Origin: Escherichia phage Lambda_ev058
Sequence record: LR597651
Reading direction: 5' to 3' (one strand)
DNA: 47,678 nt
Position numbers and translations under genes: made by a program. The first letter of the stretch is position 1. Every line of letters starts with the position of its first letter. This document shows positions 15,476 to 25,160 of this stretch, one piece after another. The notes under the pieces were generated by a model. It was not told the origin of the DNA. It saw only the letters and a list, made by a program, of their open reading frames with translations, and did no database searches.

Positions 15476-18400
15476 ATGGGTAAAGGCAGCAGTAAGGGGC
15501 ATACTCCGCGCGAAGCGAAGGACAACCTGAAGTCCACGCAGTTGCTGAGTGTGATCGATGCCATCAGCGAAGGGCCGGTTGAAGGTCCGGTGGATGGATT
15601 AAAAAGCGTGCTGCTGAACAGTACGCCAGTGCTGGACAGTGAGGGGAATACCAATATCTCCGGCGTCACGGTGGTGTTCCGGGCCGGTGAGCAGGAGCAG
15701 ACACCGCCGGAGGGATTTGAATCCTCCGGCTCCGAGACGGTGCTGGGTACGGAAGTGAAATACGACACGCCGATCACCCGGACCATCACGTCGGCAAACA
15801 TTGACCGACTGCGTTTTACCTTCGGCGTGCAGGCACTGGTGGAAACCACCTCAAAGGGGGACAGGAATCCGTCGGAAGTCCGCCTGCTGGTTCAGATCCA
15901 GCGTAATGGTGGCTGGGTGACGGAAAAAGACATCACCATTAAGGGCAAAACCACCTCGCAGTATCTGGCCTCGGTGGTGGTGGGTAACCTGCCGCCGCGC
16001 CCGTTCAATATCCGGATGCGCAGGATGACGCCGGACAGCACCACAGACCAGCTGCAGAACAAAACGCTCTGGTCGTCATACACCGAAATCATCGATGTGA
16101 AACAGGGCTACCCGAACACGGCACTGGTCGGCGTGCAGGTGGACTCGGAACAGTTCGGCAGTCAGCAGGTGAGCCGTAATTATCATCTTCGCGGGCGCAT
16201 TCTGCAGGTGCCGTCGAACTATAACCCGCAGACGCGGCAATACAGCGGTATCTGGGACGGAACGTTAAAACCGGCATACAGCAACAACATGGCCTGGTGT
16301 CTGTGGGATATGCTGACCCATCCGCGCTACGGCATGGGAAAACGTCTTGGTGCGGCGGATGTGGATAAATGGGCGCTGTATGTCATCGGCCAGTACTGCG
16401 ACCAGTCGGTGCCGGACGGCTTTGGCGGCACGGAGCCGCGCATTACCTGTAATGCGTACCTGACCACACAGCGCAAGGCGTGGGATGTGCTCAGTGATTT
16501 CTGCTCGGCGATGCGCTGTATGCCGGTATGGAACGGGCAGACGCTGACGTTCGTGCAGGACCGACCATCAGATAAGGTGTGGACCTATAACCGCAGTAAT
16601 GTGGTGATGCCGGATGATGGCGCGCCGTTCCGCTACAGCTTCAGCGCCCTGAAGGACCGCCATAATGCCGTTGAGGTGAACTGGATTGACCCGGATAACG
16701 GCTGGGAGACGGCGACAGAGCTCGTGGAGGATACGCAGGCCATTGCCCGTTACGGTCGTAATGTCACGAAGATGGATGCCTTTGGCTGTACCAGTCGGGG
16801 GCAGGCACACCGCGCCGGGCTGTGGCTGATTAAAACGGAACTGCTGGAAACGCAGACCGTGGATTTCAGCGTCGGCGCAGAAGGGCTTCGCCATGTACCG
16901 GGCGATGTTATTGAAATCTGTGATGATGACTATGCCGGTATCAGCACCGGTGGTCGTGTGCTGGCGGTGAACAGCCAGACCCGGACGCTGACGCTCGACC
17001 GTGAAATCACGCTGCCATCCTCCGGTACCACGCTGATAAGCCTGGTTGACGGAAGTGGCAATCCGGTCAGCGTGGAGGTTCAGTCCGTCACCGACGGCGT
17101 GAAGGTAAAAGTGAGCCGTGTTCCTGACGGTGTTGCTGAATACAGCGTATGGGGGCTGAAGCTGCCGACGCTGCGCCAGCGCCTGTTCCGCTGTGTGAGT
17201 ATCCGGGAGAACGATGACGGTACGTATGCCATCACCGCCGTGCAGCATGTACCGGAAAAAGAAGCCATCGTGGATAACGGGGCGCACTTTGACGGCGACC
17301 AGAGCGGCACGGTGAATGGTGTCACGCCGCCAGCGGTGCAGCACCTGACCGCCGAAGTCACCACAGACAGCGGGGAATATCAGGTGCTGGCGCGATGGGA
17401 CACGCCGAAGGTGGTGAAGGGCGTGAGCTTCCTGCTTCGCCTTACCGTGGCAGCGGACGACGGCAGTGAGCGGCTGGTCAGCATGGCCCGGACGACGGAA
17501 ACCACATACCGCTTCAGGCAACTGGCGCTGGGGAACTACAGGCTGACAGTCCGGGCGGTAAATGCGTGGGGGCAGCAGGGCGATCCGGCATCGGTATCGT
17601 TCCGGATTGCCGCACCGGCAGCGCCGTCGCAGATTGAGCTGACACCGGGGTATTTTCAGATAACCGCCACGCCCCATCTTGCCGTTTATGATCCGACGGT
17701 ACAGTTTGAGTTCTGGTTCTCGGAAAAGCGGATTGCGGATATCAGGCAGGTTGAAACCACAGCCCGCTATCTTGGCACGGCGCTGTACTGGATAGCTGCC
17801 AGTATCAATATCAAACCGGGCCATGATTATTATTTTTACATCCGCAGTGTGAACACCGTTGGCAAATCGGCATTTGTGGAGGCTGTTGGCCAGCCGAGTG
17901 ATGATGCATCCGGCTATCTGGATTTTTTCAAAGGCGAGATAGGGAAAAGCCATCTGGCTCAGGAGCTGTGGACGCAGATTGATAACGGTCAGCTTGCGCC
18001 TGACCTGGCTGAAATCAGGACGTCCATTACGGATGTCAGCAATGAAATCACGCAGACCGTCAATAAGAAACTGGAAGACCAGAGTGCGGCAATTCAGCAG
18101 ATACAGAAGGTTCAGGTTGATACAAATAATAACCTGAACAGCATGTGGGCTGTGAAGCTGCAGCAGATGCAGGACGGACGCCTTTATATCGCGGGTATTG
18201 GTGCCGGTATTGAGAACACCCCTGACGGCATGCAGAGTCAGGTGCTGCTGGCGGCGGACAGGATTGCGATGATTAATCCTGCGAATGGCAATACAAAGCC
18301 GATGTTTGTTGGGCAGGGCGATCAGATATTCATGAACGAAGTGTTCCTGAAATATCTGACGGCTCCCACCATTACCAGCGGTGGCAATCCCCCAACGTTT

Positions 18401-18958
18401 TCACTGACACCTGATGGTCGACTTTCTGCGAGAAATGCGGATATCAGCGGTAACGTGAATGCGAACTCCGGGACGCTCAATAATGTCACGATTAACCAGA
18501 ACTGTCGGATTCTGGGAAAACTGTCAGCTAACCAGATTGAAGGTGATATTGTCAAAACGGTGGGAAAAGCCTTTCCGAGAAATGGCAGTTATGCCAGCGG
18601 TACAATAACGGTCACTGTGTACGATGACCAGGCTTTTGACCGTCAGATAGTCGTCCCCCCCGTTCTGTTTCGCGGTGGTAAGCATGAAAACTTCAACAGC
18701 AACAACCAACAGTCATACTGGTATTCAACCTGTAAGCTGCAGGTGCTGAAGAACGGACAGGAAATCTTTCAGCAACCCGCGACGGATGTCAGCAGGGTAT
18801 TTTCATCAGTCATTGATATGCCTGCCGGACACGGCCATGTCACCCTGACTTTCAATGTTTCTTCATATGGTGCAAATAACTGGACGCCAACGACCAGTAT
18901 CAGCGACCTTCTTGTTGTCGTGATGAAGAAATCAACAGCCGGCATCAGTATCAGTTGA
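15476..18958 (+). CDS. J: central tail fiber / host specificity protein J
   Basis: 1160-aa ORF; N-terminus [24 protein letters not shown]... matches lambda gpJ as recalled (lambda J is 1132 aa). Confidence 0.95.
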
Positions 18959-18976
18959 ATTTTAAAACCCAAATTC

Positions 18977-19001
18977 GGGCACCAGAAATGGTGCCTTTTT
19001 T
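18977..19001 (+). terminator. intrinsic terminator downstream of J
   Basis: Direct: GGGCACC-loop-GGTGCC stem followed by a T-run, between J and stf. Confidence 0.55.
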
Positions 19002-19016
19002 ATTTGTGGAGTGAAT

Positions 19017-21038
19017 ATGGCAGTACAGATTTCAGGTGTGCTGAAAGACGGTGCAGGAAAACCGATACAGAACTGCACCATTCAGCTCAAAGCAAAACGT
19101 AACAGCACCACAGTTGTGGTGAACACGGTGGCCTCAGAAAATCCGGATGAAGCCGGACGTTACAGCATGGATGTTGAGTATGGCCAGTACAGCGTCGCCC
19201 TGCTGGTTGAAGGTTTTCCGCCTTCACATGCCGGGACCATCACCGTGTATGAGGATTCTAAGCCGGGGACATTGAATGATTTTCTGGGCGCTGCAACAGA
19301 AGATGATGTTTGTCCGGAGGCACTGTATCGTTTTGAAAAGATGGTGGAAGAGGCGGCACGCAACGCTGAAGCCGCCTCTCAGAGCGCAGCGGCAGCAAAG
19401 AAATCAGAAACAGCAGCGGCATCGTCCAGGAACGCGGCGAAAACATCAGAGACGAATGCAGGTAACAGCGCGAAAGCGGCAGCTTCTTCAAAAACAGCCG
19501 CACAAAACGCAGCAACAGCGGCAGAACGTTCAGAGACAAATGCCCGTGCGTCAGAAGAAGCCTCCGCAGACAGTGAAGAGGCTTCCCGCCGTAATGCAGA
19601 GTCAGCCGCTGAAAATGCCGGAGTCGCCACCACAAAAGCGCGGGAGGCCGCAGCAGACGCAACAAAGGCCGGGCAGAAAAAGGATGAGGCTCTGTCGGCA
19701 GCGACACGAGCTGAAAAGGCGGCAGACCGCGCAGAAGCCGCAGCGGAAGTGACTGCAGAGCCCTGTGCGAATATAGTGCCGCCGCTGCCTGATGTGTGGA
19801 TACCGTTTAACGATTCACTGGATATGATTACGGGTTTTTCGCCATCTTATAAAAAGATAGTTATTGGTGACGATGAAATAACAATGCCAGGCGACAAGAT
19901 TGTTAAGTTTAAACGTGCTTCAACAGCAACGTATATTAATAAGTCCGGCCAACTCAAGCTTGCTGAAGTTGACGAACCGCGATTTGAGCGCGATGGCTTA
20001 TTGATTGAAGGACAGAGGACAAATTATCTGAGGAACTCAAATAAACCAGACTCATGGACTGTTCATTCCGCACTGAATAAAACATTTGGCACTGATAAAC
20101 AGGGGTTCAATTATGCCACGGTGACACCCACGGAAAGTATAGTGGGAACAACAGGTGGCTATACTGTGCATGGTGTGGTTGCAGCAGACAGATTCCCGCT
20201 GGCAAGTGGTGAATGTTTCACTTTTTCGTGCCGGGTTAAAGGCGCTAAAGCACGATGCAGGTTAAGAGTTTCAGTTATTATTGGTGGAACAGATACCTTC
20301 TCTGCTGACTCTTATCTTGATCTGGATACCCGGATCGCAACAGTAAGCGGTAATACATCCCTTATAACAGCCAAAGCTGAACAACAGGGCGAGTGGACCT
20401 ACTATGAGGCCACTTATACAGCTAATACGGACATTGATACCGTTAACTGTGCTTTTTATATGACAAATAAAATAAGTAATGAGCCATTCTATGATGACTC
20501 AACATTAACCATGACGACGCCGCAAATTGAACTGGGCAATACGGCATCGTCATTTATTGTAACTACAATGCCAACAACACGCGCAAGTGATGTAGTTACT
20601 ATCCCATCGCAGAATAACCTGTCAACACGGCCTTTTACGGTATTGTGCGAAGTAAGCAGGAACTGGAGTACACCGCCCAATGTTGCGCCAAGGATATTTG
20701 ATGTTGGAGGGCACAGTATTGATGATAATTATTTATCGCTGGGGTTTGTTGCAACAGGAAAGATAAGCGCCAACGTAGGAATGGTTCAGCCACAAATTGC
20801 CTCAGATGGAGAAAGGTTCATTGTGGGTGTGAGAGCTAAATCTGATTTATCAGTAAATGCAATATGCAATGGTAATTATACAACAAACCTTAATGGTAAA
20901 ATATTTGGAGTTACAGCAACATCGTACCGGTTTGGTGGGCAGACCGCAGCAGGAACGCGTCATTTGTTTGGACACATCAGAAATTTCAGAGTCTGGTTTA
21001 AAGAATTAAATGACAGGCAAATCAAGGAGGCAGTATGA
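19017..21038 (+). CDS. stf: side tail fiber protein with divergent C-terminal region
   Basis: N-terminal ~90 aa (MAVQISGVLKDGAGKPIQNCTIQLKA...HAGTITVYEDSKPGTLNDFL) resemble lambda Stf as recalled. Followed by Ala/Ser-rich SETNA-type fiber repeats and then an unrelated AT-rich C-terminal ~430 aa. RBS GGAG lies 6 nt before ATG 19017 (the track starts at GTG 19011). Confidence 0.8.
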   Translation: MAVQISGVLKDGAGKPIQNCTIQLKAKRNSTTVVVNTVASENPDEAGRYSMDVEYGQYSVALLVEGFPPSHAGTITVYEDSKPGTLNDFLGAATEDDVCPEALYRFEKMVEEAARNAEAASQSAAAAKKSETAAASSRNAAKTSETNAGNSAKAAASSKTAAQNAATAAERSETNARASEEASADSEEASRRNAESAAENAGVATTKAREAAADATKAGQKKDEALSAATRAEKAADRAEAAAEVTAEPCANIVPPLPDVWIPFNDSLDMITGFSPSYKKIVIGDDEITMPGDKIVKFKRASTATYINKSGQLKLAEVDEPRFERDGLLIEGQRTNYLRNSNKPDSWTVHSALNKTFGTDKQGFNYATVTPTESIVGTTGGYTVHGVVAADRFPLASGECFTFSCRVKGAKARCRLRVSVIIGGTDTFSADSYLDLDTRIATVSGNTSLITAKAEQQGEWTYYEATYTANTDIDTVNCAFYMTNKISNEPFYDDSTLTMTTPQIELGNTASSFIVTTMPTTRASDVVTIPSQNNLSTRPFTVLCEVSRNWSTPPNVAPRIFDVGGHSIDDNYLSLGFVATGKISANVGMVQPQIASDGERFIVGVRAKSDLSVNAICNGNYTTNLNGKIFGVTATSYRFGGQTAAGTRHLFGHIRNFRVWFKELNDRQIKEAV

Positions 21039-21313
21039 AAGATTTAACTTTGAAATTTCCTGGTAACAGAGAGTTTAAATCCTTCCTGTCATCTCTTGAC
21101 TGGGAGGAGGATGAAGACCTCCAGAATAAACTGTTAGTCGATGAAATTGGTTTCACCTACACAGAAACAGGGGTAACAGAAGAGGGAGAACCTGTCTGTG
21201 TCCGGAATGACGGTTATTTTGTCAACATTCGCATTCTTGATGACTTGTTTGATGTTTCTGTATTCTCTGATTATGTCGTGGAGCTGGAAACACCGCTTCG
21301 GGAATGGAGCTGA
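21035..21313 (+). CDS. hypothetical protein coupled to stf (possible fiber chaperone)
   Basis: 92-aa ORF whose start overlaps the stf stop (ATGA); acidic. No recognised homology. Confidence 0.5.
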   Translation: MKDLTLKFPGNREFKSFLSSLDWEEDEDLQNKLLVDEIGFTYTETGVTEEGEPVCVRNDGYFVNIRILDDLFDVSVFSDYVVELETPLREWS

Positions 21314-21325
21314 AAGGAGGAAATA

Positions 21326-21619
21326 ATGGATATAAGCCCCTTACTTCATGCACTTTGTGCTGTGGCTGCGCAGATACTGGTTGGTCTTTTTACCGGAAAC
21401 TGGGCTTACGGAGCGATAGCCGGTTGTACGTTCTTCATTGCGCGTGAACATACCCAGGCAGAATATCGCTGGATTGAAATGTTCGGGCATGGCAAGCGAA
21501 TGAATATGCCGTGGTGGGGCGGTTTTGATCCGCGAGCTTGGGATGTGGCAAGCCTGATGGATTTTGCTGTGCCGGTGGTGGCGTGTCTGCTGGTCTGGCT
21601 GTTGGTTAATCGTGGGTGA
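21326..21619 (+). CDS. hypothetical small membrane protein
   Basis: 97-aa ORF with AGGAGG RBS and two hydrophobic segments; no recognised homology. Confidence 0.5.
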   Translation: MDISPLLHALCAVAAQILVGLFTGNWAYGAIAGCTFFIAREHTQAEYRWIEMFGHGKRMNMPWWGGFDPRAWDVASLMDFAVPVVACLLVWLLVNRG

Positions 21620-21710
21620 AAAAAGGTGAGCTGTATATGCAACGGAGGAAGAAACCCCGTTGCTGGAAGCCAGGAAAAAGTATCGGGTGTTGCTGTCCTC
21701 GGATGTTGTG

Positions 21711-22568
21711 CTAATTGGGTGATAACAGATCCTGTGTATGGGAGTTTCCCTTTTTGCGTGCGTTGATGCTGGTAACGGCAAACGTCATGATGAACAAAAC
21801 CGCGAATAAGACGACAATCGTCGGAGCTGGTGCGCTGTCGATAAAAAAGGACAACCAGACACCAGTCATTGACACTATTACCGATATGCCAGTCGCCAGT
21901 AGGAGCGCAATATGAAAGCGTTGTGTCAGGAGTACCGCAATGGCGCCAGGCGCAATGAGCAGAGAAATGGAGAGAATGATACCTACCGCTTTCAGCGTCG
22001 CCACAATGGTCAGAGAGACCATGCACAGCAGCCCATAATGCAGCCATCTCGTATGCAAACCGCTTACCTGCGCCTGTTGATAATCAAAGCTGAACAGCAA
22101 AAAATCCCGCCATTTTACGCTAATAACAAGTGTAACCAGCCCGGCAATAATCATCGTCTGGATTATATCGCCGATGGTTATCCCGAGCATGTCGCCGAAA
22201 AGAATATGGTCAAGATGTACGTCTGGTTTGACTGCAATATACAAGATCAGACCTGCGGCAAACATGCCAGAAAAAACAATCCCCATCACTGTATCTTGCT
22301 TGATTCGGCTGTTGTCTTTCAGGTATCCCGTCGCCACCGCGCAGAATACTCCGGCGACGAATGCCCCTGTAGCCAAAGGTAACCCCAGAATCCAGGCAAG
22401 CACGATGCCAGGAAAAACCGCATGACTCATCGCGTCACCCATCAGTGCCCAACCTTTCAGGACCAGAAAGACCGACAGCAGCGCACAGGGTATGGAAACT
22501 ACCAGTGAAATCAGCAGTGCGTGACTCATAAAGGTGAACTGCAGTGGCTCCAGTAATAATGCCATCAT
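21711..22568 (-). CDS. sitD: Mn/Fe ABC transporter permease SitD
   Basis: 285-aa polytopic membrane protein of the MntC/ZnuB permease type; last gene of a four-gene operon with overlapping stop/start codons. Confidence 0.85.
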   Translation of the reverse strand: MMALLLEPLQFTFMSHALLISLVVSIPCALLSVFLVLKGWALMGDAMSHAVFPGIVLAWILGLPLATGAFVAGVFCAVATGYLKDNSRIKQDTVMGIVFSGMFAAGLILYIAVKPDVHLDHILFGDMLGITIGDIIQTMIIAGLVTLVISVKWRDFLLFSFDYQQAQVSGLHTRWLHYGLLCMVSLTIVATLKAVGIILSISLLIAPGAIAVLLTQRFHIALLLATGISVIVSMTGVWLSFFIDSAPAPTIVVLFAVLFIMTFAVTSINARKKGNSHTQDLLSPN

Positions 22569-23422
22569 GAGCGATCCTCCAGCGCCTTATGCGCACGCCG
22601 ACGATTTGCCAAAAGCCCATGGGTGGGCGCAAAGACAAATGCTAAAAGAAACAGCAGTGTCTGCGCCACCACGATGATTCCACCTGTCGCGCCGTCCAGA
22701 AAGTAACTGACCCACGCGCCGAGGAAACTGGTTACACTGCCAATAGTTACAGCAATCATGAGCAGGCGGGGAAAACGATCGGTTAACAACCATGCTGTTG
22801 CACCGGGAGTCACCACCAGACAGATCACCAGAAAGGCACCAACCGTTTGCAGCGCCGCAACGGTCGAAACCGACAGCAGGGTGAAGAAGAGGAGTTTTAA
22901 TCTGCCCGGATGCAATCCAATAGCACGGGCGTGATTCTCGTCGAAAAAGGTCACCATAAGATCTTTCCATTTGAAAAAAAGCACGATGATCGAGAGAATG
23001 CCAATGATAGTGAGTTGCAGGATATCCGCCGGATCGATTGCCAGAATATTGCCCAGGACGATGGTCTGAATGTTCACAGATGTCGGGTTCAATGACACCA
23101 TAAACAGCCCCAGGCCAAAAAAGGACGAGAAGATCAGACCGATGATGGCATCTTCTTTTAAGCGGGTGCGTTGGTTAAGAAACAGCATGCTGCCCGCAGC
23201 CAGTCCGCCGGAAAAGAAGGCTCCCAGAGAAAACGGAAGCCCCAGCATATATGCCCCCGCAACACCCGGGACAATAGAGTGCGACAACGCATCGCCAATC
23301 AGCGACCAGCCTTTTAGCATCAGATAGCATGACAGGAAAGCGCAGAGACCGCCGACCATCGCCGAGACCCACATCGCATTGAGCATATATTCATAGCTGA
23401 AGGGTTCCAGTAGCACGTTCAT
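22565..23422 (-). CDS. sitC: Mn/Fe ABC transporter permease SitC
   Basis: 285-aa permease paralogous to SitD; start overlaps the sitB stop. Confidence 0.85.
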
Positions 23423-24246
23423 CTTTCTTCCCTCTGCACCGCTGACGGTCGATGAGCCACAAAAGGGCGTTCATCGTCAGTAATAATGCTTTCTTCCGAG
23501 CCGTTAAGTGTGACATGGCGCAGTACGCCGCTAAAAGCCAGCTCTAGGTTCTCGGCTGTAAAAGTGGTGTCTGTCGGCCCGCTTGCCAGGACGGTGCCTT
23601 TGACCATGACCGTATAATCGCAAAATGTCGTGACGGATCCGAGATTGTGTGTTGAGACAAGCATCGTTTTGCCTTCCGCGCGTAACTCCCTCAACAGGCT
23701 GATGATTTTGGCTTCGGTTTTCACATCAACGCCAGTAAAAGGTTCATCCAGCAGGATCACATCACCCTGCTGTGCAATCGCTCTCGCCAGAAAGACGCGT
23801 TTCTTTTGTCCACCGGAAAGCTCGCCGATTTGTCGATGGCGAAAATTCACCATATCGACACGTTCCAGCGCATCGGTGACAATTTGACGATCCCTCTTTT
23901 TGGCGATACGCAACATACCCATATGCCCATAGCGGCCCATCATCACCACATCTTCCACCAGTACAGGAAATGACCAGTCAACATCTTCTGACTGAGGGAC
24001 GTAGGCAACCAGGTTTTTCTGTAACGCCTGTCGCGTGGGAATACCCAGAACAGATATCTTTCCGCTGGTCAGACGCACAAATCCCATAATCGCTTTAAAC
24101 AACGTCGATTTTCCGGAACCGTTTACCCCAACCAGAGCGGCAATAGATCCACTTGGTACTGTGAAGGATGCATCGCGCAGTGCTGTGTGCCCGTTACGCC
24201 AGGTGACAGTAACATCATTAACGACAATGCCTGCAGATTGCATCAT
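23419..24246 (-). CDS. sitB: Mn/Fe ABC transporter ATP-binding protein SitB
   Basis: 275-aa protein with Walker A (GVNGSGKST), ABC signature (LSGGQ) and Walker B (ILLDEP). Confidence 0.9.
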
Positions 24247-25160
24247 TATTTCTCCCTTTTCCCAGCTTTAATTCCCTGTACCAGCGTACTGGTAGTAACC
24301 TTAAGAAGGTCGATATACGTCGGTACCGGGCCGTTTTCTGTGCTCAGGGAATCGACATAGAGCACACCGCCGTAGTGTGCGCCGGTTTCACGCGCAACCT
24401 GACGCGCTGGTTTATCGGAAATCGTACTCTCGCTAAAGACTGCCGGGATATGATTTTTCTTAACTATATCAACAACCTTACGTACCTGCTGCGGTGTTCC
24501 TTGTTGATCGGCATTAATCGGCCACAGATAAAGCTCTTTTAGCCCCAAATCGCGTGCGAGATAAGAAAAAGCCCCTTCACTGGTGACCATCCATCGCTGA
24601 TTCTCAGGGAGTTCCGTAATCTGCTTACGCAGGGGGGCAAGGGTTTGGGTAATCTTGGCTTTATAAGTATCGGCATTGCGTTGGTAGGTTTGTGCATTTG
24701 CCGGATCGTATTTTATCAACGCATCACGAATATTATCGACGTAAATCAGAGCATTATCTGGCGACATCCATGCATGGGGGTTAGGTTTGCCCTCATAGGG
24801 TCCTTCGGTGATCCCTACAGGCGTCACACCCGAAGAGACAATTACTTCTGGAACCCCATTGAGATGCTGGTAAAAGCGTTGGAACCACAATTCCAGATTC
24901 ATACCATTGGCGAGAATCAGTTGTGCCCCCTGCGCACGTTTAATATCGCCAGGGGTAGGCTGATACTCATGAATTTCTGCACCAGGCTTGGTTATGGATG
25001 AGACTTCTGCAGCATCTCCCGCCACGTTTTTGGCCATATCCGCGATGATGGTAAATGTTGTAATGACCTTGAATTTTTCAGTTGCACTTGCCTGAAATGC
25101 GATCGAGCAGGTGAGTGCGAGCCCCCCCAAGAGCATGGTTACTTTTTTTATCGAGTGCAT
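24246..25160 (-). CDS. sitA: periplasmic Mn/Fe-binding protein SitA
   Basis: 304-aa protein with an N-terminal signal peptide and a TroA/cluster-9 solute-binding fold signature; first gene of the operon. Confidence 0.9.

Follow-up and report, generated by a model that had tools for sequence, protein, structure and literature searches.

The side tail fibre locus of Escherichia phage Lambda_ev058 (LR597651) was examined within a stretch of 47,678 nt, hereafter the window; features lie on the plus strand unless stated. The locus comprises the side tail fibre gene stf (19011-21038), which encodes 675 aa from a GTG or 673 aa from an ATG at 19017 that corresponds to the lambda start, followed by two small open reading frames (ORFs), ORF92 (21035-21313) and ORF97 (21326-21619). 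ORF92 begins in an ATGA overlap with the stf stop codon and ORF97, a predicted small inner-membrane protein, starts 12 nt after ORF92. Each is preceded by a separate AAGGAGG, that of ORF92 lying six bases upstream within the 3' end of stf. Profile searches assigned Stf to PHROG 1419 (E 1.5e-294), ORF92 to PHROG 1361 (E 1.6e-39), and ORF97 to PHROG 1443 (E 2.4e-58), the latter two families both being annotated as 'unknown function'.

The stf gene is a mosaic, with an attachment domain and shaft of lambda type up to residue ~245 (from residue 1) and a portable distal module joined to them (~255-675). The N-terminal virion-attachment domain (19017-19409) was identified by a match of Pfam phage_tail_N (PF08400) to Stf residues 3-133, with 225 bits against a cutoff of 26.6 (E 2.8e-67), and by a BLASTP alignment of lambda orf-401 to residues 3-160 at 73% identity. 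The adjoining shaft (19350-19745; GC 0.59-0.61) is an Ala/Ser/Thr-rich region whose Ala/Ser repeats match those of lambda to about residue 242. Lambda orf-314 yielded no significant BLASTP alignment to Stf (best E 0.23), and lambda Tfa aligned neither to ORF92 nor elsewhere in this locus; ORF92 was also without a match in Pfam, including PF02413, or NCBIfam. The GC content was 0.551 over 19011-19742 vs 0.433 over 19743-21038, and the step near 19800, measured between adjacent 300-nt segments, was 0.207, the steepest drop across the 47.7-kb window. These results bear out the initial annotation in its description of a lambda-like N-terminus and repeats to about residue 245, of an AT-rich switch around 19750, of a distal domain that does not align with lambda Stf or Tfa, and of a 92-aa frame overlapping the stf stop in place of Tfa. 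The boundary itself could be refined from residue ~245 to a conserved PLPDVWIP motif at residue 255 (19773).

Within the distal module three segments were distinguished. A conserved neck (19773-20026; PLPDVWIP...TATYINKSG...EPRFE..GLLIEGQRTNY) is followed by a variable cassette (20027-20926; Stf residues ~339-638) and by a conserved C-terminal end that includes the stop codon (20927-21038; R.GGQT..G.RHLFGH.RN.R.W..L.D.Q..E.V). Comparison with phage 21 DNA delimits these segments: identity was 95% up to 20026, no nucleotide similarity was found over 20027-20926, and identity was 97.5% from 20927 through ORF92, ORF97, and sitD. A conservation profile of 69 non-redundant module homologues from several phage lineages gave a similar picture, with 89-96% conservation of the neck at residues 265-344 and of the final ~30 residues, and with variation over residues 345-524 and 565-644. 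On these alignments, the hypervariable unit is an internal cassette with conserved recombination flanks, and not the whole C-terminal 430 aa. The initial annotation had proposed a horizontal replacement of the distal domain, and this is upheld by the presence of the same module on unrelated N-termini with sharp breakpoints; it had missed that the hypervariable part is confined to residues ~339-638.

The module (PLPDVWIP to the end) was present in 217 phage records. Carriers include lambda-like phages, Drexlerviridae/Warwickvirus (Jahat, swan01, and WaterSpirit), Dhillonvirus (KarlBarth), Seuratvirus (KurtStettler), Tequintavirus or T5-like phages (SelmaRatti and Es2), and Vequintavirus or rV5-like phages (JeffSchatz). 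In at least six other phage lineages it is joined to unrelated fibre N-termini with sharp nucleotide breakpoints; one carrier is a prophage whose head and tail set differs, where the N-terminal half is unrelated and the fibre gene lies between head and tail-tube genes. The module is a common cassette shared by many unrelated coliphages rather than a one-off, with a putative role in host range. Records labelled as Campylobacter, Listeria, and Aeromonas phages contain the module at 46-71% identity; several are short and unannotated, and they may be mislabelled or contaminated rather than represent true cross-phylum transfer.

ORF92 accompanies the module with great regularity. A homologue was found after the fibre gene in every uncut locus among 80 viral-contig loci retrieved via the module and among annotated phages, one copy being too divergent for tblastn and obvious by inspection, and in 85/85 loci the fibre stop and the ORF92 start shared 1 or 4 nt. 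An ORF92 profile recovered the homologues of KarlBarth, SelmaRatti, and JeffSchatz (E 1e-27 to 4e-15), and prophages of Comamonas and Pantoea have probable remote homologues that overlap the fibre gene in the same way (hhalign probability 85%, E 6e-6). The family is small, a set of 1.84 billion proteins containing 77 representatives at the 50% identity level. A word-index search (45 clusters) had suggested that ORF92 is restricted to Escherichia, which is ruled out by the T5-like, rV5-like, and Dhillonvirus copies and the remote Comamonas and Pantoea proteins. The GC content of ORF92 (0.42) is like that of the module, while that of ORF97 is 0.53. Between types, pN (nonsynonymous differences per site) was 0.25-0.33 and pS (synonymous differences per site) 0.74-0.97; since pN is low while synonymous sites are near saturation, ORF92 is judged to be under strong purifying selection. 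The genomic evidence marks ORF92 as a dedicated partner of the distal module, obligately linked to it, and a role as assembly or accessory partner is the most likely. Co-variation of ORF92 with Stf was strongest for the last 36 aa (Mantel r 0.87), but it was discarded as evidence of interaction because those residues are encoded by adjacent DNA and physical linkage explains the signal.

The ORF92 product is predicted to be cytoplasmic and acidic (92 aa, pI 4.05), and an AlphaFold2 (AF2) model reached a predicted local distance difference test (pLDDT) score of 90. This confident fold has no known relative, and no structural similarity was found to any solved tail-fibre chaperone. The initial annotation had suggested a fibre chaperone: the tie to the tip is firm, but there is no sequence or fold similarity to Tfa or known chaperones, and a chaperone function is at most plausible. 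Like ORF92, T4 gp38/gp57A and Mu/P2 Tfa are small proteins encoded right after the fibre gene, and they are needed for the tip or kept on it; no sequence or structural similarity to ORF92 was found. Conservation of ORF92 is good although the tip is variable, and the reverse is described for the C-terminal parts of Tfa proteins, which are matched to their tips.

The distal module belongs to the gene transfer agent (GTA) head-spike-fibre family and models as concanavalin A (ConA)-like lectin sandwiches, according to domain and structure prediction of the C-terminal ~430 aa. The NCBIfam model NF048003 (GTA/phage head spike fibre domain) matched Stf residues 331-525 with 66.8 bits (cutoff 36), and module relatives in other phage lineages scored 50 bits. 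A profile of the distal part matched Protein Data Bank (PDB) entry 6tb9 chain F3, the RcGTA fibre Rcc01080 (E 8.5e-14; profile 56-295 vs chain 45-279). Single-sequence PDB searches with Stf, ORF92, and ORF97 gave nothing useful, and profile searches gave only the RcGTA fibre, for the C-terminal part of Stf. An initial homologue search for this part returned identical sequences only and hence no alignment depth; the AF2 model was built from a 9-sequence alignment. In that model residues 344-514 form a beta-sandwich (pLDDT 76-93) that superimposes on known members of the ConA-like lectin, LamG, and CBM jelly-roll families, and a second, less certain sandwich comes next; the first sandwich and most of the second fall inside the variable cassette. 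A module homologue also matched Laminin_G_3 slightly below threshold. The Pfam Peptidase_S74 domain (PF13884) was absent from Stf.

Rcc01080 (GhsB; PDB 6TB9/6TBA) is a sequence homologue of Stf residues ~300-540 and a beta-rich, lectin-like, two-lobed receptor-binding protein that makes a reversible first contact with capsular polysaccharide (PMC10218006). It differs from Stf in its setting, being a short fibre with its N-terminus on a capsid-vertex base, whereas in Stf the domain forms the C-terminal tip, behind a conserved neck, of a tail fibre that is long and trimeric; moreover, the Stf module is accompanied by ORF92 and no such partner was reported in the RcGTA fibre paper. Because the RcGTA homologue binds capsule and the lateral fibres of T5-like phages and small siphoviruses are generally taken as O-antigen binders (PMC8594841), the Stf tip would by analogy bind a surface glycan of the O-antigen, capsule, or lipopolysaccharide (LPS) type. 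In a study of a T5-like Salmonella phage, whose Ltf may or may not carry the module, ltf mutations shifted the O-antigen range. Nothing was found in the literature on the function of the Stf module, ORF92, or ORF97. The lambda-STF chimera of the Eligo paper is P2-based and does not carry the Lambda_ev058 module, and PMC12309495 concerns central spikes.

In most loci ORF92 is followed 9-12 nt on by a third gene, which encodes a protein of 155-580 aa with a conserved N-terminus (M.T.T.IP.DI..LK). Both third-gene representatives tested contained the Peptidase_S74 intramolecular-chaperone domain, which within related loci was seen only in the third gene, and the product is predicted to be a second, short fibre. 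Among viral loci parsed by the N-terminal motif, 76/76 had ORF92 directly upstream and 74/76 contained the module, the remaining two being cut by contig ends. The third gene is absent from the Lambda_ev058 window, phage 21, and one other type. ORF92 and ORF97 lay 9-12 nt apart in 21 loci and were separated by 724-1092 nt in 45 others. The junction in the window reads as a deletion that fused the ribosome-binding site and ATGG of the third gene to the ORF97 start; the third gene was apparently lost by deletion in Lambda_ev058 and phage 21. An arrangement of a main and a second fibre is known from the T5-like phages DT57C and DT571/2 (LtfA/LtfB), DT57C having branched fibres in which the second is attached through the first (PMC10713586), and the second short fibre of the cassette relatives, with its S74 domain, probably hangs on the first in the same manner. 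The DT57C lateral-fibre list (LtfA gp108, LtfB gp107, and LtfC gp109) includes no protein of the size of ORF92, and LtfA is described as having a C-terminal architecture of its own; the cassette is found in T5-like phages too, but Lambda_ev058 is without a second fibre.

In E. coli prophages retrieved via an ORF92 homologue (L006-L009, 3887-7369), which have a Phage_portal_2 portal and a protease gene fused to that of the capsid, the module fibre, ORF92, and the S74 short fibre form a trio that separates the head genes from the tail-tube gene. This position is odd for a tail fibre, and because the domain family was founded on a head spike, the module fibre of these prophages may be a head fibre.

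ORF97 is a gene of another kind. As the initial annotation had stated, it resembles a membrane protein, with hydrophobic stretches at approximately residues 5-22 and 79-95; its phage 21 homologue, 100% identical by tblastn, is annotated with two transmembrane domains. Between the hydrophobic segments lies an invariant loop (REHTQAEYRWI...MPWWGGFD). In a 25-sequence alignment (57-93% identity to the window protein) this polar and aromatic loop of 25-30 residues was near-invariant from Escherichia to Comamonas, Aeromonas, and Leclercia, which is unusual for a 97-aa membrane protein and, on the alignment, suggests a specific ligand or catalytic site. ORF97 comprised 577 clusters from Gamma-, Beta-, and Alphaproteobacteria and Desulfovibrio, with a ratio of nonsynonymous to synonymous substitution rates (dN/dS) of 0.16-0.29. 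No relative was found in Pfam, NCBIfam, PADLOC, or the PDB, and PADLOC likewise gave no match for Stf or ORF92. A promoter scan in the window, which performed no better than on shuffled sequences, gave none for ORF97.

ORF97 is absent from all virulent phage loci with the module and from the non-lambdoid prophage, and it occurs in chromosomal, non-phage contexts in Aeromonas (a conserved pirin-RIO1 context) and Sphingomonas. In L031, a three-gene lambdoid locus read in detail, ORF97 comes only after the third gene and a hairpin that resembles a terminator. This GC-rich hairpin with its T-run (L031 7660-7700; GGGGCCGAGCGCCCCGTTTTATT) is lost in the window, and since it separates the third fibre gene from the homologue of ORF97, ORF97 is set off from the fibre genes in three-gene relatives. 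Another context next to a fibre gene, with no recognisable module, is that of a Comamonas testosteroni prophage (L004, 1-6303), in which a 2520-aa J-like protein and then a 72-aa ORF precede the ORF97 homologue. The suggestion that ORF97 is a fibre accessory protein was not supported, given its different GC content, its separation from ORF92 by another gene in most lambdoid relatives, its absence from virulent carriers, and its non-phage contexts. It is probably host-derived cargo at a moron site at the end of the late operon, a known hotspot for cargo such as lom, bor, and sit (PMC6969025). ORF97 is homologous to none of the lambdoid late-operon morons lom, bor, cor, and sitABCD, and is like them in its host-like distribution and, among phages, its restriction to temperate ones.

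The data show the mosaic structure of stf, the family and fold class of its distal part, and the obligate linkage of ORF92 and its purifying selection. Beyond this, we consider it reasonably probable, if well short of certain, that the lectin-type tip binds a glycan, that ORF92 interacts physically with Stf and has a role in its assembly, and that ORF97 is separate cargo. Under this model the module would serve as a reversible-adsorption tip on a surface glycan, with specificity set by the internal cassette (~339-638), which would be exchanged by recombination via the conserved neck and C-terminal end. ORF92 would travel in the same mobile cassette, be made in step with Stf through translational coupling, and most likely bind the conserved parts of the module as an assembly factor, possibly one retained as an accessory subunit. 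In most relatives the module and ORF92 would also support the short S74 fibre with its docking peptide, while the fibre of Lambda_ev058 and phage 21, which lack the third gene, would be unbranched. ORF97 would be a host-derived membrane protein carried independently at the end of the late operon.

Several observations weigh against this model. The model of the C-terminal part of Stf is of moderate quality only, with a mean pLDDT of 62, and residues 245-338 were left unmodelled, the neck being of low confidence as a monomer. No receptor, assembly, or virion-composition experiment on any module member was found in the literature, and the sampled loci are mostly E. coli prophages and not independent. 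Furthermore, the RcGTA head-spike fibre made as a fusion in E. coli bound cells, and the related fibre of a Chelativorans prophage is not accompanied by an ORF92-like gene, so the lectin fold is not always partner-dependent. Lastly, ORF97 homologues were directly after tail fibre or spike genes in 7/10 distant species sampled and downstream of module-type fibres in 9/70 species-level loci, and Comamonas and Pantoea prophages keep the order of module fibre, ORF92-like gene, and ORF97-like gene found here; this recurrence beside fibre genes could reflect function rather than a cargo hotspot. ORF97 might then act from the membrane by masking or modifying the receptor of the fibre, or by otherwise excluding phages with the same fibre, and so protect lysogens from superinfection or prevent progeny from sticking to debris. 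A specific activity of this kind would fit the invariant polar loop and the low dN/dS as well as the recurrent gene order. We nonetheless regard it as unlikely, in view of the virulent module phages that lack ORF97, its non-phage chromosomal copies, and the gene and terminator-like hairpin that precede it in L031; in most other lambdoid loci the spacing is 724 or 1092 nt. The GC content unlike that of the module, the lack of a PADLOC or Pfam match, and the location in a cargo hotspot (PMC6969025) point in the same direction.

For ORF92 a serious alternative is that it acts as a branch-point adaptor, docking the N-terminal peptide of the S74 short fibre on a conserved part of the main fibre in an arrangement that would resemble the branched LtfA/LtfB fibres of DT57C, and that in Lambda_ev058 it is a leftover or a cap. 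The invariable place of ORF92 directly upstream of the third gene, the short spacing between them, a window junction that resembles a third-gene deletion, and the precedent of a second fibre mounted on a first (PMC10713586) are all in keeping with such a role. It is rather doubtful, however, because ORF92 is intact in the lineages without a third gene (the window, phage 21, and the L051 type) and remains under purifying selection between third-gene-less types that are only 59% identical. In addition, the rV5-like locus has ORF92 and a downstream protein without the docking motif, and DT57C branches its fibres with no such small protein among its listed lateral-fibre proteins. That both small ORFs are unrelated passengers, for instance anti-defence or inconsequential genes whose adjacency reflects synteny among close prophages, is highly improbable. 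Neither has a known domain and many of the sampled loci are closely related E. coli prophages, but the overlap of ORF92 with the module is kept in temperate as well as virulent phages, across families, genome sizes, and otherwise different surroundings, and the base composition of ORF92 is that of the module. A more ambitious proposal, which we hold to be decidedly unlikely, is that ORF92 founds a new class of small tip partners specific to GTA-spike lectin modules and forms a hub for an optional second fibre. The three genes would then be a 'branchable tip' kit traded among at least six coliphage lineages, and ORF97 a receptor-masking immunity protein co-travelling in temperate phages from Escherichia to Comamonas.

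Returning to the mosaic model with ORF92 as dedicated partner, the arrangement in Lambda_ev058 shares with lambda Stf and Tfa the N-terminal attachment domain, the Ala/Ser repeat shaft, and the genomic slot after J, together with the logic of placing directly after a fibre gene a small one on which the tip depends. It differs in its distal ~430 aa, which bear no relation to lambda orf-314, and in the absence of a Tfa homologue; ORF92 is half the size of Tfa and resembles it neither in sequence nor in fold. The receptor probably differs as well, a glycan instead of the OmpC bound by the Stf of Ur-lambda.

The locus is not new, contrary to the novelty first suggested for its small ORFs, which are already PHROG families. 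The region 18900-21800 was 100% identical to ten infant-gut phage records (1H12, Lambda_2E9, 4B5, 2G7a records, and several isolates of the ev series); its identity with PhiR47_2 was 99.8%, and 513/5426 complete E. coli genomes cover at least 80% of it at one place. Phage 21 has the same stf-ORF92-ORF97-sitD order, and its genome announcement labels both small ORFs as hypothetical or membrane proteins. The infant-gut phage paper mentions the sit operon and other morons and is silent on the fibre (PMC6969025). New here are the findings that the module is portable and holds a variable cassette in its interior, that ORF92 is its constant partner in one phage family after another, and that a third fibre is optional.

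Side and lateral fibres determine which O-antigen or capsule types coliphages can approach, and they are the parts exchanged in engineering lambda-derived particles for delivery to gut E. coli. Natural recombination joints for cassette swaps are defined by the neck and the C-terminal end, both of them conserved. If the module requires ORF92, then ORF92 must move along in fibre engineering, PHROG 1361 could be re-annotated from 'hypothetical protein' to 'tail fibre accessory protein', and a 'phage head spike fiber domain-containing protein' could become 'side tail fibre'. The value lies in annotation and fibre engineering; the understanding of basic phage biology is unchanged and the novelty is modest.

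In many E. coli genomes (H26-H36) and in phage Lambda_4B5 (LR595863), an IS4, IS5, or IS3 insertion sequence (IS) element splits the stf region, which is annotated as two partial proteins. Because IS elements interrupt stf, the fibre is suggested to be dispensable or selected against in some lysogens.

The flanks of the fibre region were also inspected. Between the J stop at 18958 and the stf start are 52 bp that contain only a terminator-like hairpin and T-run (18977-18996), in the slot occupied by lom in lambda. Thus, lom is absent between J and stf, as originally noted; it is present at the corresponding site in lambda and phage Perceval, and a terminator is annotated at the matching J-stf site in the phage 21 record. 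Downstream, the region is bounded by the sitDCBA iron/manganese transporter operon (21711-25160, minus strand), convergent with the fibre genes and a known moron carried by ~70% of infant-gut lambda phages (PMC6969025). Upstream, the last ~1.3 kb of J (17676-18958) has a GC content of 0.494 vs 0.596 in its first 2.2 kb, and because of this difference the receptor-binding end of J also looks like a separately acquired segment.

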